Shown here piece after piece: positions 6,651 to 49,785 of a stretch of 64,000 nucleotides of DNA. The notes below the pieces were generated by a model. It saw only the letters and a list, made by a program, of their open reading frames with translations. It was not told where the DNA came from and made no database searches. A program made the position numbers and the translations under genes. Position 1 is the stretch's first letter, and every line of letters starts with the position of its first letter. Source of the DNA: Eledone cirrhosa (taxonomy: Eukaryota); assembly GCA_964016885.1 (NCBI GenBank), contig CAXHJY010001010.1, forward strand, positions 1 to 64,000. Direction: 5' to 3'.

Positions 6651-6838
6651 TTTTTAAAATTTACGATAAATTGTAGTGAAAGCAACTGGTGCGTGTGTTT
6701 CTTATTGGCAACATGACCCTCCCAAAGTATAACAATATATATATATATATATATTGTTATACTTTGGGAGGGTCATGTTGCTAATAAGAAACACACGCAC
6801 CAGTTGCTTTCACTACAATTTATTGTAAATTTTAAAAA
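6651..6838. repeat. Near-perfect ~190 bp palindrome of two PLE family A 3' end pieces centred on (TA)n
   Basis: gtagtgaaagcaactggtgcgtgtgtttcttattggcaacatgaccctcccaaagtataacaatata then its reverse complement; matches 37815-37885. Confidence 0.9.
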
Positions 6839-6929
6839 TCTTTTAAAAGTTTTTTCCAAAAAAATTAATAAATTTTTTTGAAAAATTAATAAATTATTTT
6901 GAAAACATTTTTAAAATAATTTTTTAATA

Positions 6930-7065
6930 TACAATAAATCGGAGTGAAAGCAACTGGTGCGTGTGTTTCTTATTGCCAACATGACCCTCCCAAAGTATAA
7001 CAATATGGGTTTCAACACACGTTTTCAGATAAAGAATCTTGCTAAACAAATTCAGAAACGAAATA
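6930..7065 (+). mobile_element. Extreme 3' end of PLE family A
   Basis: Almost identical to 37810-37940, ending gctaaacaaattcagaaacgaaa(TA)n. Confidence 0.9.
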
Positions 7066-14372: not shown

Positions 14373-14377
14373 ATATA

Positions 14378-16933
14378 TATTGGTGGAACACTGGAAGGTA
14401 ATATCCGTAGTGGTAGAGCACTCCGTCCATTGGACGAGTTAGGTAGAAGTGGTTAAACAACAGTTAGTTCACCATACCGATAACAATTATTTCACCTTAG
14501 CAGATCCCCAGCTCGGAATGCGCATGGTTATAGGAACAGGAAGGACAACCGTATGAACGGGCAGGCGCAGAAACCCGGTCACTTCACACAGGCAATACTA
14601 GACTGCGTGCGAGAGGTGTAAGGGACATAACTGCGAAAGTCTGAAATGTTTTTCGGTTGAAAATAAAAATACAAAGAATCAGCCTTGTAGTTATGCAATA
14701 GGTGTTTGGCGACGTGTGGACAACGTGTAAAAAATTCATTTTTCGTGTTTAAGCAATCACTATTGCGTAATCTCTTTAGAGTAGTTATTCGTTTGTCAAT
14801 AGATAAGCCACACGTCGGATTTGCCCTTGCGTATGGCTTGGATATAGTGATGACTTTCCATTGAATGGAGTAGTCTGTACTTGAGTCCTTGTGGGACCAT
14901 ACGTGGCTAGCGAGTTTCGTGGATGAACGTCTGTCCGGATACCTGGAGGTAGACTGGTGTTTCAGGAAACGTTCCTTAAATCGGCCCTCCGCCATGCCCA
15001 CATAGGATTTGACCTCCTGTGGTTCGTTTCGTCGGTTGGAAGTGACGACAGCTTCATAAATTACAGCTGGTGCGTTGCATTGCTGTTGAAGCGGGCAAGT
15101 TTCAGGCTTACGCAAGAGCACCCTGGTGAGGTGTTGCTCCTAGGGCTGCTGGTGATGTGGACCTTCATGTTTTTAGCGCAGGAGTATCCTAGTTTAACTT
15201 TGTGTCGGTTAAAGAGGGATCGGTATTTATGACCTATGGGAAAGTGTCTATCTAAGAGGGCTAGAAATTGTTTTCCTACATTGGTTTTAACGTTGAGTGA
15301 GAAGGGAGGAGAGAACCATATAGATTGTCTATTGTTGCGCTTACTTTTCTTAATGGTGTTGTTGCTAGTGGGAGAGAAAGTGATAGGTTGTGAGAAGCAG
15401 CTGTTAGCCAACGCCGTGTCATAGTAGGGTGCCGCCCTGTCAAAGATAGTCTTATTGGAGGATTGGTTTGAGATTCTAGTACTGATATTTTTAACGAAGC
15501 TTCTAAAAACAGTGGGAGGGTGGCATGAGTCCGTGTGAATGTAATTGAGTTTCTCTTTTAGCTTATTGAAGGGTCTGTGGGTGTGTGTGCGAAGGTCTAA
15601 ATTAATGTCTAAGAAATATACGCTAGAGAGGTTGGTGTCTACTGGTATCCTAAGTCCTAACTCCTTGAAGGTAGAAGCTAAGTCTTTTTTAAACCGGTCG
15701 ATGTCGTGACCACTTTTATGGCTCCATAAAGTCAGTCCATGGTCGCGGTATATTCCCGTGTGGAAGTCTGGAATCTAACACGTAATATGTCTAAGATAAA
15801 TAGGTTAACCAAGTCACATACGTCAGCACTGTCAAACGATCCCATGGAGACGTCGAATAGGTCTGAAGTTGTAAACTTCTTTGCCCAGGCTACTCCGTCG
15901 TTGAAGAGGAGGGTTTTCTGGCAGTGAGCGATGATTTCCCTGTTTAAACCATCGACGGTGGTATAAGTGGTAGCGAAGTCCAACGCTTTGTTTAACAGAG
16001 TCTTTGAGATCGACGGGTAAAAATCGACAATGTCGAACTGTGTGAACTTCGCTTTTTTGGATTTTAAGGAGTTAAACCACTTAATTACGGAGTCGCTGTT
16101 CTCCGACTGGGGCAGGATGGACTTGGTCCTAATGGTCTTAACCGTGTTTCTAAGTATGGCCTTACTGACTAGTCACATATCTGTACGTGCCGGGTTTATT
16201 AGTCTACATGTGAGGTTAGAAGTAAAGTCTACCTTGTGATATTTCAGGATGAGGAACGCCTCCCGCTTAGCTAGAGATTGTATCTTCTTATCCACCTTAA
16301 AGTCGGCGGCAAGTTCCTTGGCTTCTGTATTAATGTCGTCGTAGGCCATAGGGTCAGCTTTCTTATACTTAGAAGTAATAGCGTTATGGGCCAGGTGGCG
16401 GAAAGTGGTGTTGTTGACTTCGTAAATATTATTAGTTTTGTAGGAAAGAACGAATGTGTTATTAGAAGACCTAACTTTCTTAATATTATATCTGAGTTTC
16501 GTTTGACAGGTATTAGTGTGTTTGCGAAAAGAAATAGTAACGACTAAGTCAAGAAGGTCCGTCTCGAAAGGAACAAATTCAGTTACCTTAGGAGGGTAGG
16601 CTCTCAATTTCATGTTGAAGGTGTTGTTGGTGCCTGTAATTTTGCCGTCAAAAGCTAGGGCTCGCCATCTTAAGCGTCTGACGACATCTTCCGCTTTTTG
16701 TAGGAGGAGCTTTTGTTAAGCATTGTTGGAGGGAGTTGGAATGTTCTTCAGGGAGTAATCCAGTTCGTATAAATCAATACTGACGTTTATGAGACGCAAA
16801 ATTGTGTAGGACACGAGGCTATAGAGAGCTCTCTCATGGTAGTAAGCCAAACTCGTACGTGGTGAAGAATCTGCTAAAAGCCAAACTTCTACGTAGTGAA
16901 GAGAATCTGCTGACCGGTGCTGGAGACGTACAT
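14378..16933 (-). mobile_element. Apparently full-length Penelope-like element, family B (RT plus GIY-YIG), frameshifted; first unit of a tandem
   Basis: YSLKNIP N-terminus, FDVSMGSFDSADVCDLV RT motif, WFSPPFSLNVKTNVGKQFL, VIYEAVV...YVGMAEGRFKERF GIY-YIG; terminus tggtggaacactggaagg recurs at 16936 and 27636. Confidence 0.92.
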
Positions 16934-17031
16934 AGTGGTGGAACACTGGAAGGTAATATCCGTAGTGGTAGAGCACTCAGTCCATGGGACGAGTTAGGTA
17001 GAAGTGGTTACACAACAGTTACTTCACCATA

Positions 17032-17071
17032 CCGAGAACAATTGTTTCATCTTAGCGGATCCTCAGCTCGG
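17032..17071 (-). ncRNA. Minimal type I hammerhead ribozyme in PLE family B terminus
   Basis: ccgag CUGAGGA ucc-gcuaa-gau GAAAC aauu GUU cucgg; stem I 5 bp; degenerate copy at 14477-14516. Confidence 0.75.
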
Positions 17072-17949
17072 AATGGGCATGGTTATAGGAACAGGAAGGA
17101 CAACCGTACGAATGCGCAGAAACCCGGTCACTTCACACAGGCAATACTAGACTGCGTGCGAGAGTTGTAAGGGAGATAACTGCGAAAGTTCGAACAGTTT
17201 TTAGGTTGAAAATAAAAATACAAAGAATCAGTCCGGCTCCTTGTAGTTATTCAATAGGTGTTTGGCGACGTGTGGAAACCTGTAAAAAATTCATTTTTCG
17301 TGTTGAGGCAATCACTATTGAGGCAATCACTATTGCGTAATCACTTTAGAATAGTTATTTTTTCGTCAATACATAAGCCACACGTCGGAATTCCCCTTGC
17401 GTATTGCTTGGACTTAGTGATGGCTTTCCATTGAATGGAGTAGTCTGTACTTGAGTCCTTGACCACACGTGGCTCGCGAGTTTCGTGGATGAACATCTGC
17501 CCGGGTACATGAAGGTAGACTGGTGGTTCAGGAAACGTTCCTTAAATCGGCCCTCCGCCATGCCCACATAGAATTTGACCTCCTGTGGTTCATTTGGTCG
17601 GTTGGAAATGACGACAGCTTCATAAATTACAGCTCGTGTGTTGCATTGCTGTTGAAGGGGGAAAGTTTCAGGCTTACGGCAAGAGCATCCTGGTAGGGTT
17701 GTGCTCCTAGGGCTGCTGGTGATGTGGGCCTTCATGTTCTTAGCGCAGGAGTATCCTAGTTTAACTTTGTGTCGGTTAAAGATGGATCCGTATTTATGAC
17801 CCCTGGGAAAGTGTCTATCTAAGAGGGCTAGAAATCTTTTTCCTACATTGGTTTTAACGTTGAGTGAGAAGGGAGGAGAGAACCAGATAATTTGTCTATT
17901 GTTGCGCTTACCTTTCTTAAGGGTGTTGTTGCTAGTGTGGGAGAGTAAG

Positions 17950-17985
17950 GAGCTGAGGATCCGCTAAGGTGAAACAATTGTTCTC
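17950..17985 (+). ncRNA. Minimal hammerhead ribozyme (inverted copy)
   Basis: gag CUGAGGA u cc gcuaa gg u GAAAC aauu GUU cuc. Confidence 0.75.
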
Positions 17986-18017
17986 GGTATGGTGAACTAA
18001 CTGTTGTGTAACCACTT

Positions 18018-18098
<81 letters not shown>

Positions 18099-18759: not shown

Positions 18760-20063
18760 GGGTGCAGAGGATATTTGTTCGCAAGATTTCTGTCTAGAAA
18801 AATTTAACATAGTAGTTTAATTTTTTAAGATATATTTATCAAACCTGGGTCAGTTTGTCTTCATGACTTGTCCTTTCGATCTCACTCGATAAAGCCACCA
18901 TTGGCTTTGATGACGGCCTCAAGGCGGCCTCGGAATCAGCTACAGGCCTTCGTCACTGTCACCCGACTTAGGCCCCTAAAGGCACTTGTGATCCTGGCTT
19001 TCAGATCGTCTTTCGTATTGCAGCTAGATCTGTTGGTGTCTCGTTCCACTGCGCCCCACACAAAGAAGTCGAGGGGGTTGCAGTCAGGCGAGCTGGCAAG
19101 CCAGATGTCAGGTGAACTGTGGTCGACGAAGTTCTCTGACAACCAGGCTTGGGTCTTTCGGCTGGTATGGCAGGGCGCTGAGTCTTTCTGCCACACGTAC
19201 GGCGTACCTGCAGCTACCTGGTCGATCCAGGGCTTTACTACCTCGCTCAGAACGCGGATGTAGCCATCGGTGTTCAGCTTGAGGCCCTCAGGGAAGAAGT
19301 CAGGTGGCATGACGTCACCTTCACTGCTGACGACACCTAAGACCAATGTTGTCACTGGAAACTTTGTCTGCATGACTCTGGGCACGTCTCTGGACGAGAC
19401 AGCGAGCCACCTGTTGTTCTGGGAGTTGATCTTCTGGTCTTGGCAGAAGTTTTTTTCGTCGGAGAAAAACCACCGCATTTCTGGCTCCAGTGGGTGTTTC
19501 AACTTGTTGATCAGCTTCTTTCCGTGCTTCAGTCGCTTTTCTTGCATCGCCTTTGAGAGAAATTGTCCTTTCCTCATCTTGTATGAAACGTAACAAATGT
19601 CATCATGTACCACCAGCCTAATTAGCTTTTCATCCACGCCTTTCTCCCGTGCAACGGAACGCATCGACTTGCTAGGTTCATTGTTGATGATATCCTGAAC
19701 TTCAGCGACAAATTCGGGCGTTCTGAAGGCGTCAGATCGTCGTTCATATGATTTTCTCTCTGATGTTGCTTCGTAGTCGAATCCTGAATCTTCCAATTCC
19801 TTTCTGACCTTTTCCAACATTCTCTTGCTGATGCTGAGAACGTCTGAAATTTCCTTATTTGTCCTCCCGGCGCGGATTCCAAGAAGAACTCCGTGTCTCT
19901 TTCACAAATTTGGAGGTTCAAAATTATTCATAATCAATTATTCTGAAAATAAATAATGGAAATATAGTCACTGTTTTTATGAAGACAAGAGTGACAACGG
20001 AAGTACAAAAGTTTGCATAAAATTAGCAGTTGAAAATTGCAAACAAATATCGTCCACACCCTG
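18758..20063 (-). mobile_element. Full-length Tc1/mariner superfamily DD37D (maT) transposon, ~1.3 kb
   Basis: Imperfect ~30 bp TIRs (cagggtgtggacgatatttgtttgcaa), TA flanks, encodes a transposase. Confidence 0.93.
18882..19931 (-). pseudogene. DD37D transposase with two in-frame stops
   Basis: MNNFEPPNL*KRH...; FSDEKNF; KDSAPCH-(37 aa between Asp residues)-SPDCNPLDF; continues *FRGRLEAVIKANGGFIE*. Confidence 0.9.
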
Positions 20064-25343: not shown

Positions 25344-27621
25344 CGTGCTGTAGTTCTTGGAACTTATTCCTGATCCCTCTGATGTGCCTTAGTCTTGCAG
25401 GCTTGCGACAGCATATGGCCTCACGGTCTTATTTGCTTTCTTCTTCTTCAACCTCAAGCGGATTTATCCAACCACGAGATGATGGTCAGATCCGACGTCT
25501 GCCCCTCGGTAGGTGCGAACATCCAAGAGAGAGAAACGCCACCTCATGCCAATACAGATATAATCAATCTCATTCCTGGTGTTGCCATCAGGGGAAGTCC
25601 ATATCATCTTGTGAATCCGCCTATGGGCGAAGAATGATATAGTTATTGGTAGAAGAATGGGGACCAATCGGGAACAGTGGATCAGCAGTACTTTATGGAA
25701 TGTCATTGACGAGAGGAATGATGTTAAGAACAAAAGAGATCAAACCAAATCTCGACAGCAATGGAAGGAAGTGGACAAGGAGTACAGACGTCTTGACAAG
25801 GAAGTAAAGAAGAGCTGTCGAAAAGACAAGCGCCAGTGGTTAGAAGATCGGGCTGCAGAGGCACAAGTGGAAACAGATTGAAATGATTCCAAGACGCTGT
25901 ACCGGATCGTGAGAGCTAACTGGTGGACGAAGTGGAAGCAGTTTGCCAATCAAGAGCAAAGATGCTCAGATGCTTGCAGCCATTGAAGAGCAGCCCCAGA
26001 GGTGGAACGAACACTTTCGTGAGGTCCTCAATCAGCCATCACCCAACACAGGCTTCGAGCTTGTCTGGGAGGAAGCGAGCTACCGGCTGGATGTACAACT
26101 AGACGGCATCACAAGAGCTGAGGTGGCCAAGGCCATCCGCTCCCAAAAGAATAACAAAGCGGCAGGGCTGCATGAGATTCCTGCAGAGCTTCTGAAGCAC
26201 GGCAAGAATGTAATAGAGGAGCAGCTCACCCATTTATGCAATGTGATTTGGCAAGAAGAGGAGGTGCCGGAGGACTGCGGAAATGGAGTGATTGTACCAC
26301 TACCAAAGAAGGGCTGTCTCAGCGACTGCAACAACTATAGAGGGATCACGTTGCTATCAGGGCCAGGGAAGGTATTCTGCACAGGCATCCTGAACCGGCT
26401 GAGAGCAGAAGTAGATCGTCATCTTCGAGACGAACAGGCTGGCTTCCGCAGTGGAAGGTCTTGTTCAGAGCAGATCTTCACTCTCCGAAATATCATTGAA
26501 CAATGTCGGGAGTTCCATAAGTTCCTTGTTGTCAACTACATTGACTTCAGGAAAGCTTTCGACAGTCGTCATCGGAAATCATTGTGGAAGATTGTAAGAC
26601 TCTAGGGTGTCCTAGAGAAATATATTAACATCTTCAGGTCGCTGTACCGACATTCCAGGTGCTGCGTTAGGACAAAGGACGGAAACACGGAAATGTTTGA
26701 CATCTTGACGGGTGTTCGACAAGGCTGCATCCTTTCGCCTTTCCTTTTCCTCATTGTCATCGATTTCATCATGAAGAAGACAATGAGTGACCCTCGTTTT
26801 GGCATCAGTTGGGATGGAAGGAAATTAAGCGACCTGGACTTTGCCGATGACATCGAAGTGATAGGCCATTCCCGAGAAGACCTGCAAGAGATGACAAACG
26901 TTCTAAATGACAATGCAAAGAAAGTTGGCCTGCGCATCAGTTATGAAAAAACCAAGACCATGTCGACAGGTGACCCTCCAAATCTTCCCATCATGGTTGG
27001 TCAGCGTAACATTGAATGTGTAAACCACTTCCAATACCTTCTGACGATGGGGATGCTGAGGTGGATGTGTGCACAAGGCTGGGAAAACAGCGGCGGTCTT
27101 CCAGCGACTCCGTCCGGTATGGTCCAGGTGTTCCATCGGCAACGCAGTCAAATTCCGTGTTTACATGTCCATTGTAGTACCAACAGCGATATATGTCTGT
27201 GAGACATGGAAAAGTACGAAAAGTGTATGTAACAAGCTTGATGTATTCCACCGTCATTGCATTCGGACCATATTGAATATTTCATGGTTAGACGAAGTTA
27301 GCAACGAGGAAGTGATGAGGAGGTCAGGATTGGAGAGGTTAAGGGACATTGTCCGGAAAAGGAGACGGTGGTTCGTGGGCCACATCCTTCGTTTGCCGGC
27401 ACATCGACCTGCTCATATTGCCATGGATTGGGTACCAGAACGTGGCAGGAGAGAACGGGGAAGACCACGAAAAACATGGCGGAGCACATTCAGGGAGGAC
27501 CTGCGGGAGATGGGAATTACCTGGAGAGGTGCTAGAAGGGCCGCCAGTGACAGGATCAAGTGGAGGAAGCTCGTCGCTCAATGTTCCACAAGGGATTGGA
27601 GGAACTAAGATTAAGACTAAG
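25340..27621 (+). mobile_element. RTE-clade LINE with inverted 5' segment, disrupted RT ORF and (CTAAGA/TTAAGA) tail
   Basis: Minus strand 25340-25655 encodes APE end WTSPDGNTRNEIDY...GSDHHLV; plus strand has NYRGITLLS, QAGFRSGRSC, GVRQGCILSP, DFADD, GRPRKTW. Confidence 0.93.
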
Positions 27622-27632
27622 ATATATATATA

Positions 27633-28690
27633 TAGTGGTGGAACACTGGAAGGTAATATCCGTAGTGGTAGAGAACTCCGTCCATGGAACGAGTTAGGTA
27701 GAAGTTGTTACACAACAGTTAGTTCACCATACCGAGAACAATTGTTTCACCTTAGCGGATCCTCAGCTCGGAATGAGCATGGTTATAGGAACAGAAAGGA
27801 CAACCGTATGAACGCGCATGCGCAGAAACCCGGTCACTTCACACAGGCAATACTAGACTGCGTGCGAGAGGTGTAAGGGAGATAACTGCGAAAGTCCGAA
27901 AAGTTTTTAGGTTGAAAATAAAATTACAAAGAATCAGTCCGGAGCCTTGTAGTTATGCAATAGGTGTTTGGCGACGTGTGGACAACGTGTAAAATATTCA
28001 TTTCTCGTATTTAGGCAATCACTATTGCGTAATCTCTTTAGAATAGTTATTCGTTCGTCAATACATAAGCCACACGTCGGATTTCCCCTTGCGTATGGCT
28101 TGGACTTAGTGATGGCTTTCCATTGAATGGAGTAGTCTATACTTGAGTCCTTGAGGGACCATACGTGGCTGAAGGTAGACTGGTGGTTCAGGAAACGTTC
28201 ATTAAATCGTGCCTCCACCATGCCCACATAGGATTTGATCTCCTGTGGTTCGTTTGGTCGGTTGGAAGTGACGACAGCTTCATAAATTACAGCTGGTGTG
28301 TTGCATTGCTGTTGAAGCGGGTAAGCTTCAGGCTTACGGCAAGAGCACCCTGGTGGGGTGTTGCTCCTAGGGCTGCTGGTGATGTGGGCCTTCATGTTCT
28401 TAGCGCAGGAGTATCCTAGTTTAACTTTGTGTCGGTTAAAGAGGGATCGGTATTTATTACCTATGGGAAAATGTCTATCTAAGAGGGCTAGACATTTTTA
28501 TCCTACATTGGTTTTAACGTTTAGTGAGAAGGGAGGAGAGAACCAGATAATTTGTCTATTGTTGCGCTTACTTTTCTTAATGGCGTTTTGCTAGAGGGAG
28601 AGTAAGTGTTAGGTTTTGAGAAGCCGCTGTTAGCCAAAGCCGTGTTATAGTAGGATGCCGCCCTGTCAAAGATAGCCTTATTAGAGGAAA
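27633..28690 (-). mobile_element. 5'-truncated family B PLE (GIY-YIG end and terminus)
   Basis: Copy of 14378-15460; ORF 27934-28395 has VIYEAVV...YVGMVE. Confidence 0.92.
27732..27771 (-). ncRNA. Minimal type I hammerhead ribozyme, intact
   Basis: ccgag CUGAGGA u cc gcuaa gg u GAAAC aauu GUU cucgg; palindromic stem III aacaauuguu. Confidence 0.82.
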
Positions 28691-28693
28691 GGT

Positions 28694-29235
28694 ATGTATG
28701 TATATATACACATACTACTGTACGTCTGTATACATATATGTATGTACGTATACATACTTATATTTAAGTAATAGCCGTACTAAGAGTGAGAAATGAAATT
28801 TCGTTTCATTTTTTTCCATTTATCGTTTTAGGTGCTCCCGGCCGATTAACTCTCTCGATATGCAAATTAGGTTGCACAGCCGTTAATATACATAAGGAAA
28901 GTATATACTTTCAGACGTTCAATCATCTGGCAGGAAGGTATACGGTGCTGACGATAGCTAATAAGCTTGAAACTAGTACATCGTTCATTTGTCAGTGTTG
29001 AACAAAAGGTCAACGATGGTTGCTAAACACTGTACGGCTTAATTCGGGATGTTTGTTTACAAACAAACCGAGCATTATAATAAATGTTCGGTGAATCCAT
29101 ACGTACATATTTATATGTGTGCATGTATGTATATATATACATACTACTGTACGTCTGTATACATATATGTATGTACATATACATACATATATATATATAT
29201 ATATAAATAAATATATATAAATGCACACATACATA
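28694..29235 (+). mobile_element. Non-coding retrozyme-like element, ~429 bp monomer with terminal direct repeat
   Basis: catactactgtacgtctgtatacatatatgtatgtac at 28711 and 29140; HHR inside; same family as 43816-44584. Confidence 0.8.
28942..28984 (+). ncRNA. Minimal type I hammerhead ribozyme
   Basis: acggug CUGACGA u agcu aaua agcu u GAAAC ua GUA caucgu; palindromic stem III acuagu. Confidence 0.88.
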
Positions 29236-32951: not shown

Positions 32952-33784
32952 TTCATAGGTATATTTTAAACTTATAGCCTCGTTTAAATGATTTTTGTAT
33001 GGTTGATTATGCTGATTGGGAGAAGAAATACTGTATATAGTTTATCAAATGATTCTATGGACTTACTTTCTTATATATTGCACTGATAGTTGATTATTTA
33101 ATTAATTAATTCGTCATTGAGCCACACCGTGAATGGTTGCCTAAAACATATATATATATATATCTATGGCTCTGTCTAGTTTGTGTATATACACTTTTAA
33201 ATTTTATATACTCCCGTAAGGTTGAGTAAAACTTTAGGCAGTATTCGGCTGCGCTTTCTGGCAACCAGCCTACTCGCTGACAGGCACCAATGACAAGCTT
33301 TCTTACTTGACCATTAGCCACGTGACAATTCTTAGCCATTTTGAATTCGTTTCTGGCGGTGAGCATTTAAGAAAAAATCTTTGTTCAATTGAGGTTGTCT
33401 CCTGATGATTTCGAAACTCGTTGATTTATCCAAGATCGGATATTTCCAAAAAGCGAATGAAACCTAGGCGGTAGAGGTATATTTAATGGTTTTGGTATGT
33501 TTATGTACACCTTTTCTTCTAACTTTGATTCTGTACCTAATTATATATGGTTAACTGTATGTCTAATCAATTTCTACAGGCTATCAGAAATATTAGGTAA
33601 ATTTTCTGTGGCTGTGAATCGCGGATAAAAAGCTATCATTTATTTATCTATTATTCCTTCATAGGTATATTTTAAACTTATAGCCTCGTTTAAATGATTT
33701 TTTATATGGTTGATTATGCTGATTGGGAGAAGAAATACTGTATATATTTTATCTAATGATTCTATGGACTTACTTTCTTATATA
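32952..33784 (+). mobile_element. Non-coding retrozyme-like element, 706 bp monomer with ~127 bp direct repeat
   Basis: 32952-33078 repeats at 33658-33784; HHR inside; ends in (TA)n. Confidence 0.78.
33396..33479 (+). ncRNA. Type I hammerhead ribozyme with enlarged loop II
   Basis: ugucuc CUGAUGA u uucg...cgaa u GAAAC c uaggc g GUA gaggua. Confidence 0.78.
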
Positions 33785-33796
33785 TATATATATATA

Positions 33797-34699
33797 TTTG
33801 GAAAGAGAGATGTATTTTAATTATGTCTCATATAAAATAATACAACTGGTTATCCGCAAAATACGTATAGTTAGCACCCTAAACGTATAATTGGGATTAT
33901 ACTAAGTTATATCCTAATGTTTGTTGAGTGAGATGGAAGCCGGTCGGAGTATTGCTTAAAGCTTTCTCTGTTAATGTATTAAATATTATACTCTTGATTT
34001 GGCTAGGGATAAATATTTCCAGATACTTTTTAGGTATGACTTTCCGTATTTATTCTTTATATGAAATATTGATTTTTCTTCCGGTATCTTATCTCTGTTT
34101 TTAGCCTAAGAAAATACCTATATGCGTGTATAAATAATACATGCATATATTTATTTTAATATCCAATTGAGTTCTTTACGCATGGTTAAAATTATTGAAA
34201 GAATTAATTGACCCACGTGCATATTATTTTATTTTTCTATGTTTTGCGATGACCTCCCCTTTCCGCTTGATGGCAGTGTGAGATTTATCATTGTGAGACT
34301 GCTGGAATTTCAAATTTGGCGGTCATTCTGGCAAGGAGGGGTACCATCGCTGAACATTAATATCGGTAAGGTTTTTTTTATCGATATTTGTCGGGCATCC
34401 ACTGATGATTTATAAGTGCACACCTACACATATTGCTACGGACTATGTGTAGGCTTCTACATAACCTGGACATTATTTTCCCAATTTGTAGAACATTTAT
34501 AATGAAACGATCGTTTGGAAAGAGAGATGTATTTTAATTGTCTCATATAAAATAATACAACTGGCTATCCGCAAAATACGTATAGTTAGCACCCCAAACG
34601 TATAATTGGGATTATACTAAGTTATATCCTAATGTTTGTTGAGTGAGACGGAAGCCGGTCGGAGTATTGCTTAAAGCTTTCTCTGTTAATGTATTAAAT

Positions 34700-34701
<2 letters not shown>
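33797..34701 (+). mobile_element. Non-coding retrozyme-like element, ~717 bp monomer with ~188 bp direct repeat beginning at the HHR cleavage site
   Basis: 33797-33986 repeats at 34514-34701; flanked by (TA)n on both sides. Confidence 0.85.
34398..34519 (+). ncRNA. Type I hammerhead ribozyme with three-way branched stem II
   Basis: ucca CUGAUGA u uuauaagug [ccuacacaua/uauguguagg][uucuaca/uguagaa] cauuuauaa u GAAAC gauc GUU ugga. Confidence 0.85.
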
Positions 34702-35248
<547 letters not shown>

Positions 35249-36017
35249 TTGCTTGTGTTTCTTTCCATCTTCGGTTAGCTTTCCCCTGTGTTGTTTACTT
35301 GTCTCACTCGCTTTACGCGTTTCAATTGTCCTAATAACTTATTTTAGTTATTATCGCTCCAACGTGTGGTATCTGATTTTTAATGCGATGAAATACCAAT
35401 GATCGTTGGCAAATCACTGATGAGGGACTCATTTAATAACATGTAAATCCATGTGCAACCACGCAGTATTCTTCTCCCCATATTTTTCATATATTTACCT
35501 AAACTGCGATTATCTGTTTCTCTCTTTCTCTCTTACTGCTCCCTCGTTCTCTCTGTTTCTCTTACTTTCTTTCGTCCCCTCTGTCATGTCAGTTAACACT
35601 TTCTCTCTACTGACCTCTTCCTCGCACTTCCACTTACTCACTCTCTGTTTCTCCCCTTCTCACCTCCTCCCGTTCGCTACGAAAACGATTTTCCTTCTTT
35701 CTAACATCTGATTCACTAGCGGAAGGTCTGTTTCTAACTCGCTCATATATTCACACAGCTTATGCTGATAGAATAACCATGTTGCTTGTGTTTATTTCTA
35801 TCTTCGGTTAGCTTTCCCCTGTGTTGTTTACTTGTCTCACTCGCTTTATGCCTTTCAATTGTCCTAATAACTTATTTTAGTTATTATCGCTCCGACGTGA
35901 GGTATCTGATTTTTAATGCGATGAAATACCAATGATCGTTGGCAAATCACTGATGAGGGACTCATTTTATAACATGTAAATCCATGTGCAACCACGCAGT
36001 ATTCTTCTCCCCATATT

Positions 36018-36026
<9 letters not shown>
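35249..36026 (+). mobile_element. Non-coding TA-flanked element, 533 bp period with ~245 bp direct repeat
   Basis: 35249-35494 repeats at 35782-36026; each repeat contains CTGATGAG. Confidence 0.7.
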
Positions 36027-36070
<44 letters not shown>

Positions 36071-36209: not shown

Positions 36210-36364
36210 AGGAAGACATGATATGAAGGTTTAAAACACTTGTGGATAGTGCAGTTTTAAATCAACATATGAAAAGTAGTTTTAGATTGATGTGTGGAAT
36301 TGGGGAAAAAATTTGTTGAGGGGGGGGGGGGGGAGGATGAAAAAGAGGAGGAGATGAGAGTAAA

Positions 36365-37501
36365 ATGTGGAGGGGGAGGAGTATAATGAGGAAGGATAAG
36401 ATAGGAGGAGAGATGGGTGATAGAGAGAGAGAGAAACACACAATGGAAAGCATCCAGCAAATAGCAAACTCCATCCACCAGAGCATTAGAGTTACTATAG
36501 ACTACCCAAGTAAACACCCCAACCATCGATTACATGTACTAGACACAGAGCTCTGGTTAGATACCATTAACAACAAAAAACAAATCCTCCATTCCCATTA
36601 TGCCAAACCCATGACTTCCAAACATCTGATCCACCGAAACTCGGCCGTGTCGGACCATACCCAAATCAACATACTGATTGCGGATTTGGTACGGGTGATG
36701 AGAAATGTGTCCCGCATGTGCAACCCCGAAGAACTAGAGAGACACATACAACACTTCATCCACCGTATGCAGTTCTCTGGCTACAATCAGAGAGATAAAA
36801 TCAGAGTGTATAGAGGAGCCAGAACCAAATGGGAAAAAATGGTAAATAATGACATAAATGGGACCTGCCCCTTGTATAGGAGCAAATTTTGGAATAGAAT
36901 AGAAAGAACTAGGAACAAGGCTAATAGAATAAACTCATGGTATGATAGCAATAAATACCAGAGTGTAATGTTCATCGATACAACCCCTAGAGGTGAATTA
37001 GCTTACAAATTTAGAAGGGCCCTAAATAGACATAAACTCAATATTAAGATAGTAGAAAGACCAGGTACCTCCGTAAAAACACGTATTAGCAAGACATACC
37101 CTTTTCAAAGACCCTCATGTATAGATAAGAAATGTATAACCTGTAAAATAAGCCCACATATTAACTGTAAAACTAGAAATGTAGTGTATAGCATAAGATG
37201 TACTGAAGGACAATGTAGAGACAAAAATATAGTGTACATAGGTGAGACAGCCCGTAGTGTAGGTGAACGGATAAATGAACACTGGCGAGACCTTCAAGAT
37301 AATAAAGAATCATCTGTACTCTACCAACATGCTAAAATAGTACACAAGGGTAAATTAGAGAACATAGAAATAAAAATAGAATCTACACACAGAAAAAACG
37401 CAATGGTTAGACAAATTACAGAGGCAATAAACATAAAAGAATTACAACCAAAATTAAATAGAAAATATGAGTGGAACAGCAACATCACAACTTACAATTA
37501 A
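36365..37501 (+). CDS. Uninterrupted C-terminal half (RT thumb, Cys linker, GIY-YIG) of PLE family A; 5'-truncated, start not genuine
   Basis: LHVLDTELW, HYAKPM, RMQFSGY, FIDTTPRGEL, KIVERPG, CxxxxCxxC, VVYSIRC...YIGETARSVGERINEH, RQITEA, LNRKYEW. Confidence 0.88.
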   Translation: MWRGRSIMRKDKIGGEMGDREREKHTMESIQQIANSIHQSIRVTIDYPSKHPNHRLHVLDTELWLDTINNKKQILHSHYAKPMTSKHLIHRNSAVSDHTQINILIADLVRVMRNVSRMCNPEELERHIQHFIHRMQFSGYNQRDKIRVYRGARTKWEKMVNNDINGTCPLYRSKFWNRIERTRNKANRINSWYDSNKYQSVMFIDTTPRGELAYKFRRALNRHKLNIKIVERPGTSVKTRISKTYPFQRPSCIDKKCITCKISPHINCKTRNVVYSIRCTEGQCRDKNIVYIGETARSVGERINEHWRDLQDNKESSVLYQHAKIVHKGKLENIEIKIESTHRKNAMVRQITEAINIKELQPKLNRKYEWNSNITTYN

Positions 37502-37701
37502 GGACAAGATGAAAACACACACACACATAGAACAAACAACCAACCAGTAACATGTAAATAAACAAATAAATAAATGAACATAAACACACACAGACACCCG
37601 GATGTGGCGCATGCGCAGACTGAGCACACAACACACACACAGAAACAAAATGGCGTAGGACAGAACAAAAGAGAGGCACAGAAACAAAGAAAGGAATCCC
37701 C

Positions 37702-37746
37702 AGTCACTGAAGAGGTCACAGAGTGTGTGACGAAAGAACTATGACT
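37702..37746 (+). ncRNA. Minimal hammerhead ribozyme in 3' UTR of PLE family A (one extra core nucleotide)
   Basis: aguca CUGAAGA g gucaca gagug ugugac GAAA gaa CUA ugacu. Confidence 0.72.
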
Positions 37747-37938
37747 ATATATAAAGAACTATCTGGTTGTGGAACCAACCAACCAACCAGAAATTTATAA
37801 ATTTATTATAATAAATTGAAGTGAAAGCAACTGGTGCGTGTGTTTCTTATTGGCAACATGACCCTCCCAAAGTATAACAATATCGGTTTCAACACACGAT
37901 TTCAGATAAAGAATCTTGCTAAACAAATTCAGAAACGA

Positions 37939-37939
<1 letters not shown>

Positions 37940-37970
<31 letters not shown>

Positions 37971-39967: not shown

Positions 39968-40123
39968 AATATAGATTTTGAGTATATGTTGGTTGTATAC
40001 CAACACCTCAGTATGCAGGCTGGAGCACTCGACGAAGTGCGCAGGTTGGTTTGGTTACTCCGGAGTAATGTAAAATAAAGTTAAATAAAAAGTCAAATGT
40101 TTAAAATTTAGCTTCGTTTATTG

Positions 40124-40176
40124 CTGCTATATATATTTCAGTGACAGCCATCTTCGGCTGTGACCTCTTCAGGCAG
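40124..40176 (-). ncRNA. Type I hammerhead ribozyme in PLE family C terminus
   Basis: cugc CUGAAGA ggucacagcc gaagau ggcugucacu GAAA uauau AUA gcag. Confidence 0.82.
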
Positions 40177-43066
40177 TCCGAATTAGTGTGGTATAGACAA
40201 GTACATATGTTGCTGAGGTGTATAATATTGTCAATACTCTTATATGCCCAGTTCCTGGTTGGGTTGTTATTTCATTGAGGAACTAAAATAATATGAATTC
40301 AAACAAACGAATTTCAGTGTCAAAGGGCCTCTTCTCCTCTCATTGGTCAGTTGTTAGAACATTCCTCATTCTAAGTGTTGTTATTGTTGGAGTTAGCTTA
40401 AAAAATTGATAAAGTGGTAGAAGGGACAAGGTGTTAAAGGAACAAAATAACAAAAAAGGTGTCAAACTTCCCATTGGTCAGTTCTGAGAGCATTCCTCAG
40501 TCAGAAGTCTGTAGAATTATTTCTGGGGTGAGGCTCCCTGTAGTGTTTGTGTTTGCTATTGTTAAGTACATTTGACCTCTACCATTATTTTGGTAGTGTT
40601 GTTGGAGTTGTGGTCAGCTTATGTCTTGCCTCTGTTGACAATTTAGAAGTATCTGTGTGTGTGTTTCTTCATCTCTCCTGCCACCATCTCTCATAGTGGT
40701 GGTGGTGAGGGGGGGGGGGGGTTCTTCCATGTATATGAAGAAATATAAGGCAATAAATGAAGTTGTATGATTTGAAAATAAATAATTAATAGAGAATAAA
40801 GAATAAATGAAAAATTGGTGAAAAAGTAATGAAAATGAATATGGAGAAGTGAAAAATGAAATGAAGATTCAAATAAAGTAGGATAAAGTGTGTGTGTGCT
40901 ATAACCAATCTCAAGGTCAGAAATATGTTGGATAGATTGGTATGAGGGACAAGATGTTAAAATAAGATAATCAAACAAAATGTGTTTGTGTAATAATCAA
41001 TCTCAACTTAAAAATAAGGTGATACAGTGAAGAGGGCAGAAAACAAATAACAAATTAATAAAGAGAAAACAAGATTTAAAATTGGGACTTGAAAGTCAGA
41101 AATTAAGTAAATTAAAATGTGTTTGTGTTATATAGATGTTGGCCAAATTATAATGGCTGTGTCCGATTCAATCACTAAGCTATCATGGTGTCTGCTCAGC
41201 CTGGGTTGTTCCCTGTGGCTTGAGGGTAGTTCACAACCTAGGGTATTTTTACTGCCCATATAGCTTGAGGGAGGTCTGGCTGAGAGGTGTTTACATGTTC
41301 AGTAGAAGTCCCTATAGCTTGAGGGGAGATCACATCTTCTTGTGTTGCTACTATCCATATATATTAAGGAAGGTCCCGGCTCTAAGGTGTCTGCATGTTC
41401 CGAAGAATTCGGTTCTGAGGTTTATCAGGCTGCTTCCACCTCTTAGTATCTCGAAGGTCTCGTTCAGGCATAGTTTGCATATGCAAGATCCCCCTTTATC
41501 GGGTGGTACTTTCCTGATTATGTACCAGGCCAGAGAGTACGGGGTCCTGTCCAGCTTAAGCTTCCAGATCAGGTCGGAGAGAGCCATGCTTTTCCTTTTG
41601 GCCTCCTTATTGAATGAATGGCGATGGTTGTACCAGCTGTCTTTAAAGCTCGTTGATGTGGCTCCTATGTAGAGGTTTTCGGAGTTGGGGGTTTTAACCC
41701 TACAACCGTATACTAGGTTCTTCTTGAGGCATTCATTACCAAGGGGGCATGATTCGGGGTTTCTGCAGTTGCAGAGAGTGGTCAACCTCTGCGTGCCTAG
41801 ATTAGGGTTCCCGTTATGTGTTACATGTTGGTCTTCCCCCAGGCAAGGTGGGGGGTCCCCGGGTCTGTTTGGGTTTCTTGGGTGGGCTCTTGGTCCCCCC
41901 TTCCATCCTTTCACATGGTTCTGCTGAGTGTTTGTATTGCCATCTTCTGGTTGTGTCTGGTTTTTAAGCCTACTCCTGTTGATGCTAGCTATGTGTTGGG
42001 CCAGATTTCTCGTGGTGGAATACGAGAGCTTCACAGTGTGTCTATTGAAGATCCTGTGGTATCTGTGGTCCCTCGGGAAGCATTTATCAAGTGCTCCAAA
42101 GAATGATCGGGCCAAGCTGTTCTTTACTGCTATAACCAATCTCAAGGTCAGAAATATGTTGGATAGATTGGTATGAGGTACAAGCTGTTAAAATAAGATA
42201 ATCAAACAAAATGTGTTTGTGTAATAATCAATCTCAACTTAAAAATAAATATAAGGTGATACAGTACCAATCTATCCAACATATTTCTGACCTTGAGATT
42301 GGTTATAGCACACAGACACTTTATCCTACTTTATTTGAATCTTCATTTTATTTTTCACTTCTCCATATTCAGTTTCATTACTTTTTCAACAATTTTTCAT
42401 TTATTCTTTATTCTTTATTCTCTATTTATTATTTATTTTCAAATTATACAAATTATATTATTTATTTTCTGTTTTCTTCATTTATTGCCTTATATTTCTT
42501 CATATACATGGAATAACCCCCCCACCACCACCACCACCACCACCACTATGAGAGATGGTGGCAGGAGAGATGAAGAAAAAACACACAAAGATACTTCTAA
42601 ATTGTCAACAGAAGCAAGACATAAGCTGACCATAACTCCAACAACACTACCAAAATAATGGTAGAGGTTAAATGTACTTAACAATAGCAAACACAAACAC
42701 TACAGGGAGCCTCGCCCAAGAAAGAATTCTATAGACTTCTGACTGAGGAATGCTCTCAGAACTGACCAATGGGAAGTTTGACACTTTTTTGTTATTTTGT
42801 TCCTTTAACACCTTGTCCCTTCTAACACTTTATCAATTTTTTAAGCTAACTCCAAAAATAACAACACTTAGAATGAGGAATGTTCTAACAACTGACCAAT
42901 GGGAGGAGAAGGGGCCCTTTGACACTGAAATTCGTTAGTTTGAATTCATATGATTCCAGTTCCTCAGTGGAATAACAACCCAACCAGGAACTGGGCATAT
43001 AATAGTATTGACAATATTATACACCTCAACAACATATGTACTTGTCTATACCACACTAATTCGAAA

Positions 43067-43117
43067 TGCCTGAAGAGGTCACAGCCAAAGATGGCTGTCA
43101 CTGAAATATATATAGCA
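43067..43117 (+). ncRNA. Inverted copy of the family C hammerhead
   Basis: ugc CUGAAGA ggucacagcc aaagau ggcugucacu GAAA uauau AUA gca. Confidence 0.8.
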
Positions 43118-43169
43118 GCAATAAACGAAGCTAAATTTTAAACATTTGACTTTTTATTTAACTTTATTT

Positions 43170-44584
<1,415 letters not shown>

Positions 44585-44610
44585 CACACACACACGCACA
44601 CACACACACA

Positions 44611-44654
<44 letters not shown>

Positions 44655-45046
44655 CGGCTGGAGAGAAATGAAGCAAGTATGCTCCGTTGGATGTGTAATG
44701 TCAATGTGCGTGAACGACCAAGCATAGACGAGATGAGAAAGAAACTGGGTATAAGAGGGATAAGTTGTGGTGTGCAGGAAAGAAGGCTGAGATGGTATGG
44801 ACATGTGATATGCATGGAGCATCACCGCTGGTTAAAGGCGTGCGAAGAAATCCCAGTAGAAGGAAGACGCAGTAGATGTAGGCCACGTAAAGCATGGGCG
44901 GAAGTGGTGAACCCAGACCTCAGATCGCTGTAACTCAACGAGGAGAGGACGAAGGCCCCTGACAAGTGGAGTGCTACTGTGCTGAATAGGACCCGTCCAA
45001 CCCTTGTAAGCAGGGAAAAGCGGATATAAAATGATGATGATGATGA
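44655..45046 (+). mobile_element. RTE LINE 3' end (also at ~46706-47100 and ~48691-49085)
   Basis: RLERNEASMLRWMC...ERRLRWYGHV...CRPRKAW; (GAT)n tail. Confidence 0.9.
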
Positions 45047-45049
45047 TAC

Positions 45050-45189
<140 letters not shown>

Positions 45190-45273
45190 GTTATTCCGGG
45201 TTGAATCGGAGGTAACCACAGTAAGTAAGGTACTCAATACATTGCAGAGTATAAAAGTTTTAATATAGATGAG

Positions 45274-45320
45274 ATTCTACAGGACTAGAACTGTTTCATT
45301 CTTTAGAAATCATCAGGAAT
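45274..45320 (-). ncRNA. Type I hammerhead ribozyme in 135 bp module, copy 1 of 5
   Basis: auuc CUGAUGA u uucu aa agaa u GAAAC ag uucuaguc cu GUA gaau. Confidence 0.88.
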
Positions 45321-45321
45321 T

Positions 45322-45367
<46 letters not shown>

Positions 45368-45368
45368 C

Positions 45369-45427
<59 letters not shown>

Positions 45428-45541
45428 ATATGTATATATATATATATGTATATATACGTTATTCCGGGTTGAATCGGAGGTAACCACAGTAAGTAAGGTA
45501 CTCAGTACATTGCAGAGTATAAAAGTTTTAATATAGATGAG

Positions 45542-45588
45542 ATTCTACAGGACTAGAACTGTTTCATTCTTTAGAAATCATCAGGAAT
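45542..45588 (-). ncRNA. Hammerhead ribozyme, copy 2 of 5
   Basis: Identical to 45274-45320. Confidence 0.88.
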
Positions 45589-45589
45589 T

Positions 45590-45669
<80 letters not shown>

Positions 45670-45670
45670 C

Positions 45671-45716
<46 letters not shown>

Positions 45717-45723
45717 CATATAA

Positions 45724-45754
<31 letters not shown>

Positions 45755-45767
45755 TATATATATATAC

Positions 45768-45821
<54 letters not shown>

Positions 45822-46359
45822 ATATATATATATATATATGTGTGTATATATATATATATATAAATGGAAAAGAATGAAACGAAATTTCATTTCTCAGTCT
45901 TAGTACGACTGATACTTAAATGTAAGTATGTATGAATACGTACATACATATATGTATACAAACGTACAGTAATATGTATATATATACATACATGCACACA
46001 TATATATATTTGTACGTACGGGTTTACCGAACATTTATTATAAAGTTCGGTTTGTTTGTTTGTAAACAAACAAACAGCCCGAATGACGCTTAAAGTTCGG
46101 TAAACCCATACGTACATATATATATGTTTGCATATACGCCTGTATACATATATGTATGTACATATACATACATACTTACATTTAAGTATCAGCCGTACTA
46201 AGAGCGAGAAATGAAATTTCGTTTCATTCTTTTCCATTTATCGTTTTCGGTGAGCCCGGCCGACTAACTCACTCGATATGCAAATTAAGCTGCTCAGCCG
46301 TTAATATGCATGTGGAAAGTATATACTTTCAGACATTCAATCATCTGGCAGGAAGTTAT

Positions 46360-46402
46360 ACGATGCTGACGATAGCTAAAAAGCTTGAAACTAGTACATC
46401 GT
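46360..46402 (+). ncRNA. Minimal hammerhead ribozyme (28942 family), intact
   Basis: acgaug CUGACGA u agcu aaaa agcu u GAAAC ua GUA caucgu. Confidence 0.88.
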
Positions 46403-46615
46403 TCATGTGTAAGTGTTGAACAAAAAGGCGACGATGGTTGCCTGAACACTGTAGGGCTTAATTCGGGCTGTTTGTTTGTTTACAAACAAACAAACCGAAC
46501 ATTATAATAAATGTTCGGTAAACCCATACGTACATATATATATGTGTGCATCTATGTATATATATACACTACTGTACGTCTGTATACATATATGTATGTA
46601 CGTATAAATACATAC

Positions 46616-46706
<91 letters not shown>

Positions 46707-47101
46707 CGGCTGGAGAGAAATGAAGCAAGTATGCTCCGTTGGATGTGTAATGTCAATGTGCGTGAACGACCAAGCATAGACGAGATGAGAAAGAAACTGG
46801 GTATAAGAGGGATAAGTTGTGGTGTGCAGGAAAGAAGGCTGAGATGGTATGGACATGTGATATGCATGGAGCATCACCGCTGGTTAAAGGCGTGCGAAGA
46901 AATCCCAGTAGAAGGAAGACGCAGTAGATGTAGGCCACGTAAAGCATGGGCGGAGGTGGTGAACCCAGACCTCAGATCGCTGTAACTCAACGAGGAGAGG
47001 ACGAAGGCCCCTGACAAGTGGAGTGCTACTGTGCTGAATAGGACCCGTCCAACCCTTGTAAGCAGGGAAAAGCGGATATAAAATGATGATGATGATGATA
47101 C

Positions 47102-47142
<41 letters not shown>

Positions 47143-47145
47143 ATG

Positions 47146-47176
<31 letters not shown>

Positions 47177-47177
47177 G

Positions 47178-47225
<48 letters not shown>

Positions 47226-47309
47226 GTTATTCCGGGTTGAATCGGAGGTAACCACAGTAAGTAAGGTACTCAATACATTGCAGAGTATAAAAGTTTTAAT
47301 ATAGATGAG

Positions 47310-47356
47310 ATTCTACAGGACTAGAACTGTTTCATTCTTTAGAAATCATCAGGAAT
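47310..47356 (-). ncRNA. Hammerhead ribozyme, copy 3 of 5
   Basis: Identical to 45274-45320. Confidence 0.88.
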
Positions 47357-47357
47357 T

Positions 47358-47455
<98 letters not shown>

Positions 47456-47569
47456 ATATGTATATATATATATATGTATATATACGTTATTCCGGGTTGA
47501 ATCGGAGGTAACCACAGTAAGTAAGGTACTCAGTACATCGCAGAGTATAAAAGTTTTAATATAGATGAG

Positions 47570-47616
47570 ATTCTACAGGACTAGAACTGTTTCATTCTTT
47601 AGAAATCATCAGGAAT
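47570..47616 (-). ncRNA. Hammerhead ribozyme, copy 4 of 5
   Basis: Identical to 45274-45320. Confidence 0.88.
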
Positions 47617-47617
47617 T

Positions 47618-47663
<46 letters not shown>

Positions 47664-47664
47664 C

Positions 47665-47714
<50 letters not shown>

Positions 47715-47721
47715 CATATAA

Positions 47722-47752
<31 letters not shown>

Positions 47753-47765
47753 TATATATATATAC

Positions 47766-47825
<60 letters not shown>

Positions 47826-48336
47826 ATATATATATATATATAAATGGAAAAGAATGAAACGAAATTTCATTTCTCAGTCTTAGTACGACTGATACTTAAA
47901 TGTAAGTATGTATGAATACGTACATACATATATGTATACAAACGTACAGTAATATGTATATATATACATACATGCACACATATATATATTTGTACGTACG
48001 GGTTTACCGAACATTTATTATAAAGTTCGGTTTGTTTGTTTGTAAACAAACAAACAGCCCGAATGACGCTTAAAGTTCGGTAAACCCATACGTACATATA
48101 TATATGTTTGCATCGCCTGTATACATATATGTATGTACATATACATACATACTTACATTTAAGTATCAGCCGTACTAAGAGCGAGAAATGAAATTTCGTT
48201 TCATTCTTTTCCATTTATCGTTTTCGGTGAGCCCGGCCGACTAACTCACTCGATATGCAAATTAAGCTGCTCAGCCGTTAATATGCATGTGGAAAGTATA
48301 TACTTTCAGACATTCAATCATCTGGCAGGAAGTTAT

Positions 48337-48379
48337 ACGATGCTGACGATAGCTAAAAAGCTTGAAACTAGTACATCGT
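48337..48379 (+). ncRNA. Minimal hammerhead ribozyme (28942 family), intact
   Basis: Identical to 46360-46402. Confidence 0.88.
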
Positions 48380-48590
48380 TCATGTGTAAGTGTTGAACAA
48401 AAAGGCGACGATGGTTGCCTGAACACTGTACGGCGTAATTCGGGCTGTTTGTTTGTTTACAAACAAACAAACCGAACATTATAATAAATGTTCGGTAAAC
48501 CCATACGTACATATATATGTGTGCATCTATGTATATATATACACTACTGTACGTCTGTATACATATATGTATGTACGTATAAATACATAC

Positions 48591-48691
<101 letters not shown>

Positions 48692-49086
48692 CGGCTGGAG
48701 AGAAATGAAGCAAGTATGCTCCGTTGGATGTGTAATGTCAATGTGCGTGAACGACCAAGCATAGACGAGATGAGAAAGAAACTGGGTATAAGAGGGATAA
48801 GTTGTGGTGTGCAGGAAAGAAGGCTGAGATGGTATGGACATGTGATATGCATGGAGCATCACCGCTGGTTAAAGGCGTGCGAAGAAATCCCAGTAGAAGG
48901 AAGACGCAGTAGATGTAGGCCACGTAAAGCATGGGCGGAGGTGGTGAACCCAGACCTCAGATCGCTGTAACTCAACGAGGAGAGGACGAAGGCCCCTGAC
49001 AAGTGGAGTGCTACTGTGCTGAATAGGACCCGTCCAACCCTTGTAAGCAGGGAAAAGCGGATATAAAATGATGATGATGATGATAC

Positions 49087-49155
<69 letters not shown>

Positions 49156-49271
49156 ATATGTATATATATATATATATGTATATATACGTTATTCCGGGTT
49201 GAATCGGAGGTAACCACAGTAAGTAAGGTACTCAGTACATTGCAGAGTATAAAAGTTATAATATAGATGAG

Positions 49272-49318
49272 ATTCTACAGGACTAGAACTGTTTCATTCT
49301 TTAGAAATCATCAGGAAT
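49272..49318 (-). ncRNA. Hammerhead ribozyme, copy 5 of 5
   Basis: Identical to 45274-45320. Confidence 0.88.
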
Positions 49319-49321
49319 TTG

Positions 49322-49381
<60 letters not shown>

Positions 49382-49384
49382 TAT

Positions 49385-49564
<180 letters not shown>

Positions 49565-49567
49565 ATA

Positions 49568-49785
<218 letters not shown>

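Follow-up and report, generated by a model that had tools for sequence, protein, structure and literature searches.

An Eledone cirrhosa hammerhead repeat whose insertion 5′ ends form an edge at the predicted ribozyme cut

Copies of a non-coding tandem hammerhead element in the Eledone cirrhosa genome have a fixed 3′ end and variable 5′ ends, and the latter form an edge at the first predicted cut counted from the 3′ end. Longer copies cross the cut with precise junctions, and a 3′-terminal motif is shared with a Penelope-like element. The element was likely copied into (TA)n by a Hydra-type Penelope-like protein, its short copies likely originating from RNA that had already been cut; hammerhead cleavage itself is likely, as judged from the genomic edge. 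Insertion ends that form a one-sided edge at a predicted cut are in vivo evidence obtainable from any assembly, and bear on the question of RNA cutting in vivo by the minimal hammerheads of Penelope-like elements and animal retrozymes.

Results

The copy that we analysed is a protein-less repeat at 33797..34701 of the window (the whole 64,000-nt stretch of contig CAXHJY010001010.1), set between two (TA)n tracts (Table 1). The initial annotation had described a monomer of about 717 nt followed by a partial repeat. We confirmed a unit of 717 nt, equal to the period and running from predicted cut to predicted cut, and a repeat of 183 nt; 33798-33990 and 34515-34706 are 96.9% identical. The unit starts at 33799 with TGGAAAGAGAGATG and contains no ORF of at least 100 aa. 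The units of subfamilies A and B (see below) both fold better than shuffled sequences (z −4.2 and −3.5, 25 shuffles). Target-site duplications are unreadable inside (TA)n.

Table 1. Features of the copy in the window and of its insertion site
Feature	Position	Strand	Remarks
5′ (TA)n target	33780..33797	.	tail of adjoining tandem element (repeat 32952-33078/33658-33785)
5′ junction	33798..33799	+	T33798 ambiguous; T33799 is +1 after the predicted cut
Full unit, non-coding, highly folded	33799..34515	+	33% GC; circular MFE z −4.2 vs 25 shuffles
Unit positions 1-38	33799..33836	+	first-pass 5′ ends of the family accumulate; hairpin 9-31, TA microhomologies 12-15
Internal copy of 3′-end motif	33952..33995	+	unit position 185 is 33983; exactly one-unit-long copies accumulate
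Secondary 5′-end hot spot, unit 528-565	34326..34363	+	3′ base of GC-rich stem
Type I hammerhead	34398..34519	+	predicted cut 34515/34516
Second, partial repeat, 183 nt, unit 1-185	34516..34698	+	ends at fixed 3′ end of the family
3′-terminal motif	34667..34698	+	common to abundant Hydra-type Penelope-like element; predicted reverse-transcription start
3′ (TA)n target	34698/34699..35249	.	directly after unique sequence of second repeat

All parts of the hammerhead proposed initially, including its GUU at 34513-15, were found in place: a 4-bp stem I (TCCA 34398-34401 / TGGA 34516-34519) and the core words CTGATGA (34402-34408), GAAA (34504-34507) and GTT (34513-34515). The layout comprises CUGAUGA, a U.U at 10.1-11.1, a branched stem II of ~95 nt, GAAA, a palindromic 2-bp helix III and GUU. 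Rfam hammerhead models gave no match at gathering score within the window, likely due to the long stem II. Among 106 distinct spans from the family, core, stem I and GUH triplet are intact in 81, and the 10.1-11.1 pair is G-C in 14 (subfamily B) and U.U in 90 (subfamily A, including the copy in the window). For 30 of the 106 spans, picked to balance the subfamilies, the predicted pairs of helices I-III were held in 97.2% of cells, versus 30-52% for slid controls. Compensatory double changes are confined to the stem II hairpin and lie between subfamilies A and B; that is, the covariation reflects the two-subfamily split and few independent events. In the predicted monomer ensemble, helix III has a probability of 0 and the core is paired within an alternative helix; the 136-nt hammerhead domain (−32 kcal/mol) is closed at +4 by an alternative helix of 11 bp. 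A duplex of the palindrome with a second copy is predicted at −11.8 kcal/mol, and such pairing has been described for minimal hammerheads (PMC4209133).

A similarity search of the 3.0 Gb genome returned 4002 candidates, 40 of which were scored. Since this search ranks by full-unit coverage and is biased for end mapping, anchored exact patterns were used instead; a 37-nt pattern from the 3′ end matches 549 times. The copies share one 3′ end, at unit position 185 and followed by (TA)n, and differ in their 5′ ends. Two subfamilies, ~75% identical (571 identical positions), were distinguished: A, with 717 nt, U.U at 10.1-11.1, GUU and 33% GC, and B, with 772 nt, G-C at 10.1-11.1, GUA and 31% GC. 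Head-to-tail units occur as dimers and as an array of about 9 units (copy L178, G000:C5:86647500-86656500), the longest seen and a candidate source locus. The spacing at the cut site is exact in 223 of the 227 spans that cross it, which fits uncut or cleanly ligated RNA and not template jumping. Going by sequence, the element is a non-LTR retrozyme, with head-to-tail units, a type I hammerhead, no coding capacity and GC below 45%; the family may already be in repeat databases. No copy in the anchored samples continued upstream into a shared ORF. A genome search for a short-stem-II version of the hammerhead yielded one deleted copy and no partner, and the sole match to a pattern for unit region 233-271 was the copy in the window. 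Inverted pairs of truncated copies (L032/L033, L080, L010, L192) resemble those described for Penelope-like insertions.

We mapped 5′ ends in a first sample that took, from the 549 matches, the first 100 along the genome and, from 67 matches to a variant 3′ end, the first 30; L062 (interrupted) and L109 (duplicate) were dropped. Here, 38 of the 119 copies at risk end in +1..+38, versus 3/81 in the next 38 nt past the cut (p 4e-7). The best change point of the 5′-end rate lies within 5 nt of the predicted cut, and the rate ratio across the cut is 4.9 after a TA-density term. A subfamily B sample (75 rows out of 114 matches, 69 of them terminal, with 18 rows overlapping the first sample and one interrupted copy included) gave 16/66 versus 1/50 in 38-nt windows, and 17 held-out copies, fetched afterwards, gave 6/15 versus 1/9. 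Pooled without overlap (n=201), 56/188 copies end within 38 nt downstream of the first cut and 5/132 upstream (p 1e-9). Within 17 nt of the cut there are 37 downstream ends versus none upstream; within 11 nt, a stretch of purines without TA, the counts are 18 and 0, and on the cut itself (+1/+2) only 5 and 0. The flanks of these five do not match the sequence upstream of the cut. The remaining 51 of the 56 ends are off the cut, most of them 3-35 nt inside, and 19 sit at the TA microhomologies at positions 12-15. The initial annotation had called for a test of whether 5′ ends pile up at the cleavage site; the 201 copies display a one-sided edge, with ends spread over +1..+38. Short copies ending at the first cut measure 148-185 nt. 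Apparent 5′ ends at 314-316 arose artificially from the divergence of subfamily B and disappeared with a second reference.

The copy in the window belongs to the longer class, which ends at the second cut. For this class mapping covered all 93 internal-junction matches, and 88 long copies were kept; the five rows dropped were three in one array, one duplicate and one internal deletion, and L189 was moved by hand to 715. No edge was observed at the second cut in the 88 long copies (13/54 versus 8/41, p 0.42). Thirteen ends in −6..+15, versus 4.8 expected, form a two-sided bump there, in an interval chosen after looking. Run-off of reverse transcriptase at a cut 5′ end, which the initial annotation had read from this single copy, is thus matched by the family at its first cut and not by the second cut at which this copy ends. 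Likewise, genomic evidence of ribozyme activity comes from the family-level edge, one copy being unable to carry the inference.

This copy had also been said to begin at its own cut, directly after (TA)n. T33799 does stand at +1, but the junction reads (AT)n-T-TGG, with T33797 in the (AT)n register and T33798 out of it. The extra T33798 equals U717, the base that the upstream cleavage product retains just before the cut, so alignment places the 5′ end at unit 716 and not at +1; the base may have been either templated by uncut RNA or added without template. For this copy only, we regard ordinary 5′ truncation on uncut or circular RNA, stopping by chance 1-2 nt upstream of the cut, as having a slightly better than even chance, which is compatible with the explanation for the family. 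Its end at 716 and the extra T match uncut RNA, three other long copies end at 715, 715 and 712, and a second-pass edge is absent. Moreover, 3 of the 41 long copies at risk end within 3 nt of the cut versus 1.2 expected (p 0.12), so that the single coincidence in the window is not beyond chance; as the second cut has no edge, this copy taken alone carries little weight. Conversely, a single A added to the cDNA without template would also produce this T, and untemplated base addition to cDNA is established enzyme behaviour; copy L015 ends similarly after a T run, and ends are in local excess around the second cut. A cut end is accordingly possible for the copy in the window, if somewhat doubtful. 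Five other copies, joined cleanly at +1, illustrate the case better.

At the level of the family, the main rival explanation is that the edge came about without cleavage, the enzyme stalling on uncut RNA where the folded hammerhead domain has its 3′ base, or at the 9-31 hairpin, with (TA)n microhomology setting the ends. The predicted folds offer such obstacles, in the 136-nt domain with its closing helix and in an 8-bp hairpin at unit 9-31, and the second-pass bump extends to either side of the cut. Unit 528-565 is a hot spot linked to structure (17/67 copies at risk), likely due to enzyme stalling; since it lies at the base of a GC-rich stem, non-cleavage stops do occur. However, eight ends fall in +1..+4 versus none in −1..−7 of the closing helix (p 3e-4 if uniform), and the ends do not decay towards the cut (2, 1, 2, 1 and 4 at +5 to +1). 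Rates are low (0.07-0.23%/nt at 566-717) in most of the regions predicted to fold more stably (140-nt windows of −36 to −44 kcal/mol, 553-705), and the same structure produces no edge on the second pass. We therefore consider stalling an improbable source of the edge.

It is very unlikely that an internal promoter near +1 makes the 5′ ends mark transcription starts: Penelope repeats carry promoters (PMC6765202), but the start would have to lie no more than 2 nt from the hammerhead cut in subfamily A as well as B, and an equal second-pass edge, which is absent, would be expected. Descent of the short class from one or a few short master copies, or its origin by recombination between repeats of longer copies, is largely refuted and the least probable of all, for although the tree has little resolution (7 starred branches out of 111) and could hide some clustering, short copies are scattered on it (31 changes versus 32 shuffled), occur in both subfamilies with more than 20 end positions and share identical sequences with long ones, and recombination would copy second-pass ends, which are frequent at 39-168 (32/86), a stretch with few first-pass ends (9/128).

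Copies about one unit long are in excess (13/32 within 30 nt, flanks 0.25-0.37%/nt, p 2e-5). The excess is suggestive of circular RNA, but since the one-unit site resembles (TA)n and is itself the natural start or nick site, it is not specific to a circle.

An abundant Penelope-like element of Hydra type has a 3′ end matching the 3′-terminal ~32 nt of the retrozyme copies, and similarity to this partner is confined to the terminal ~32-45 nt, weakly ~100 nt. A neighbouring element in locus L184 ends in a similar motif, and the exact pattern taken from it has 25,416 matches in the genome; 3 of the 30 loci sampled run into a GIY-YIG ORF and are about 97-98% alike. The Penelope-like ORF that adjoins the shared motif in L184 itself was rejected as partner, as it belonged to another family. 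When end-anchored 40-mers were compared with the partner end, the scores were 17 (A) and 14 (B), a level that none of 5000 shuffles reached, and the 3′ ends of five other local elements scored −6 to +1. Unanchored local alignment to the partner end was weak (5/300 shuffles for A, 122/300 for B). A control for the TA flank left out motif-bearing words and is biased in favour of a shared motif. A DNA similarity search with the motif region gave no match where the exact pattern succeeded. The likeness extends past the end into the partner's optional tail, and both elements end in (TA)n.

The partner ORF, a 501-aa fragment without its N-terminus that was read by eye, has a CxCX5C linker, a C-terminal GIY-YIG, CxxC and CxH, and no CCHH. 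Of the Hydra-clade features set out in PMC8557442, the C-terminal GIY-YIG, the cysteine motifs and the (TA)n targets are present; the clade is further characterised by RWK and DKT motifs, its place in the RT tree and a canonical hammerhead. A Pfam search of the fragment named no family; its homologues are mostly unnamed, one being labelled GIY-YIG endonuclease. The partner's hammerhead-like motif mostly reads CAGAAGA. Taken together, a Hydra-type Penelope-like element is probably the mobiliser of the retrozyme. Among the partner copies L331-L360, 11/30 break off 56-68 nt away from the anchor, where CAGAAGA...GAAA has its 5′ edge, and often with an inverted duplicate, and the optional tail is present in 11/30.

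Discussion

We propose that multimeric transcripts would cut themselves, probably when paired into double hammerheads by the palindromic helix III. The borrowed enzyme would nick (TA)n and initiate internally at unit position 185. On cut RNA, perhaps roughly a quarter of the templates, it would reach a free 5′ end after 185 nt, and the run-off cDNA would be joined via microhomology, usually with loss of 3-35 nt. Uncut or religated (circular) RNA would allow read-through and give longer partial tandems such as the copy in the window, in which the stop at the second cut may represent a second cleavage or ordinary truncation. Among the points against cleavage are that there is no second-cut edge, that 51 of the 56 ends are off the cut, that stops occur at a second hot spot, that the monomer is predicted to fold without helix III, and that subfamily A has U.U and GUU.

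A more far-reaching reading, which we put forward tentatively and as rather doubtful, takes the genome as a quantitative fossil record of the whole retrozyme cycle. Linear cut RNA would yield the 150-185-nt copies; religated circles would yield the longer copies and the one-unit pile-up, the point at which the enzyme would run into its own start; and both would be driven by a Hydra-clade Penelope-like protein that recognises an internal signal of ~32 nt. If true, the hammerhead would reduce productive insertion rather than promote it, with ligation as the rescue.

The family resembles the metazoan non-LTR retrozymes (Cervera and de la Pena 2020, PMC7229834; Li et al., bioRxiv 10.64898/2026.07.22.740005) in having head-to-tail units that are non-coding, low in GC and carry a single type I hammerhead, and its unit length is inside the 51-972 bp reported there. 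The U.U at the base of helix II is common to subfamily A and the axolotl HHR_Amex2, which still cleaved 22% as a monomer (PMC7229834). In contrast to the metazoan retrozymes described in these sources, the family consists mostly of dispersed 5′-truncated copies of less than one unit, with a fixed 3′ end and a branched stem II of ~95 nt; its unit, seen here in DNA, is longer than the 170-400 nt of the animal retrozyme circles reported so far. The copy in the window carries a single hammerhead and is therefore not 'active' under the two-unit rule of bioRxiv 10.64898/2026.07.22.740005. Penelope-like elements have been proposed as mobilisers of metazoan retrozymes (PMC7229834; bioRxiv 10.64898/2026.07.22.740005); the available text of both papers contains no mapping of genomic ends to the cut and names no partner by a shared insertion end. 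Since the shared 3′ motif names a candidate enzyme and a start site, this long-assumed partnership becomes bench-testable.

Likeness to the Penelope-like elements themselves, as these are portrayed in PMC4209133, PMC8557442 and PMC11167929, extends to the short stem I, long stem II and palindromic helix III of the pseudo-LTR hammerheads, and to partial tandems, 5′ truncation, (TA)n targets and a fixed internal start of reverse transcription; unlike them, the unit is without ORF. Internal initiation was reported for one Penelope-like protein (PMC11167929). For anole Poseidon, the same source describes cleavage as dispensable in vitro and no reads ending at the cut, whereas the present family has a genomic edge there. 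Minimal hammerheads of Penelope-like elements and animal retrozymes are described as cleaving weakly in vitro (PMC4209133), and 8/9 frog retrozyme dimers as not cleaving (bioRxiv 10.64898/2026.07.22.740005). A search of literature that includes few subscription papers returned no account of genomic 5′ ends accumulating at the hammerhead cut of a retrozyme or Penelope-like element. With the HDV-like ribozyme of R2, as presented in PMC3774820, the family has in common that the ribozyme cut would define the template's 5′ end and that junctions vary by chance microhomology. R2 differs in that it has another ribozyme class, is autonomous and rDNA-specific, and that its cut defines full-length elements; in the present family the cut would lead to short dead-end copies without ribozyme.

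Other elements in the window

The tandem that hosts the retrozyme insertion in its terminal (TA)n (32952-33785) is itself a non-coding partial tandem, with a period of about 706 nt and a 128-nt repeat. It contains CTGATGA-TTTC-GAAA at about 33402, hammerhead-core-like with stem II nearly absent, and is very abundant in the contigs searched. A third partial tandem (35250-36030; period 533 nt, 248-nt repeat) also ends in (TA)n and recurs upstream of copy L085; GAAA, GATCGTT and CTGATGA are present in it, in no hammerhead order. At 36341-37940 lies the 3′ part of a Neptune-like Penelope element (GIY-YIG, cysteine linker) with a short hammerhead at 37703-37750. A common 3′-end pattern of this family matches the genome 10,742 times, and 30 copies showed no 5′-end edge at their own hammerhead, in a comparison of low power (2/24 versus 3/22).

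Further along, a Penelope-like fragment (40068-43174; ORF 41351-42187, minus strand) lies between inverted repeats of 689 nt, both of which have a hammerhead-like word, CTGAAGA, close to the (TA)n end. Three near-identical units of ~2 kb with long (TA)n tracts between them (43817-49785) are possibly a recent tandem duplication or an assembly artefact. Inverted-repeat and Penelope-like fragments were also found at 6656-7062, 14366-18018 and 27621-28696, together with several RT fragments of LINE type and an ORF for a mariner-like transposase (18936-19901, labelled by eye).
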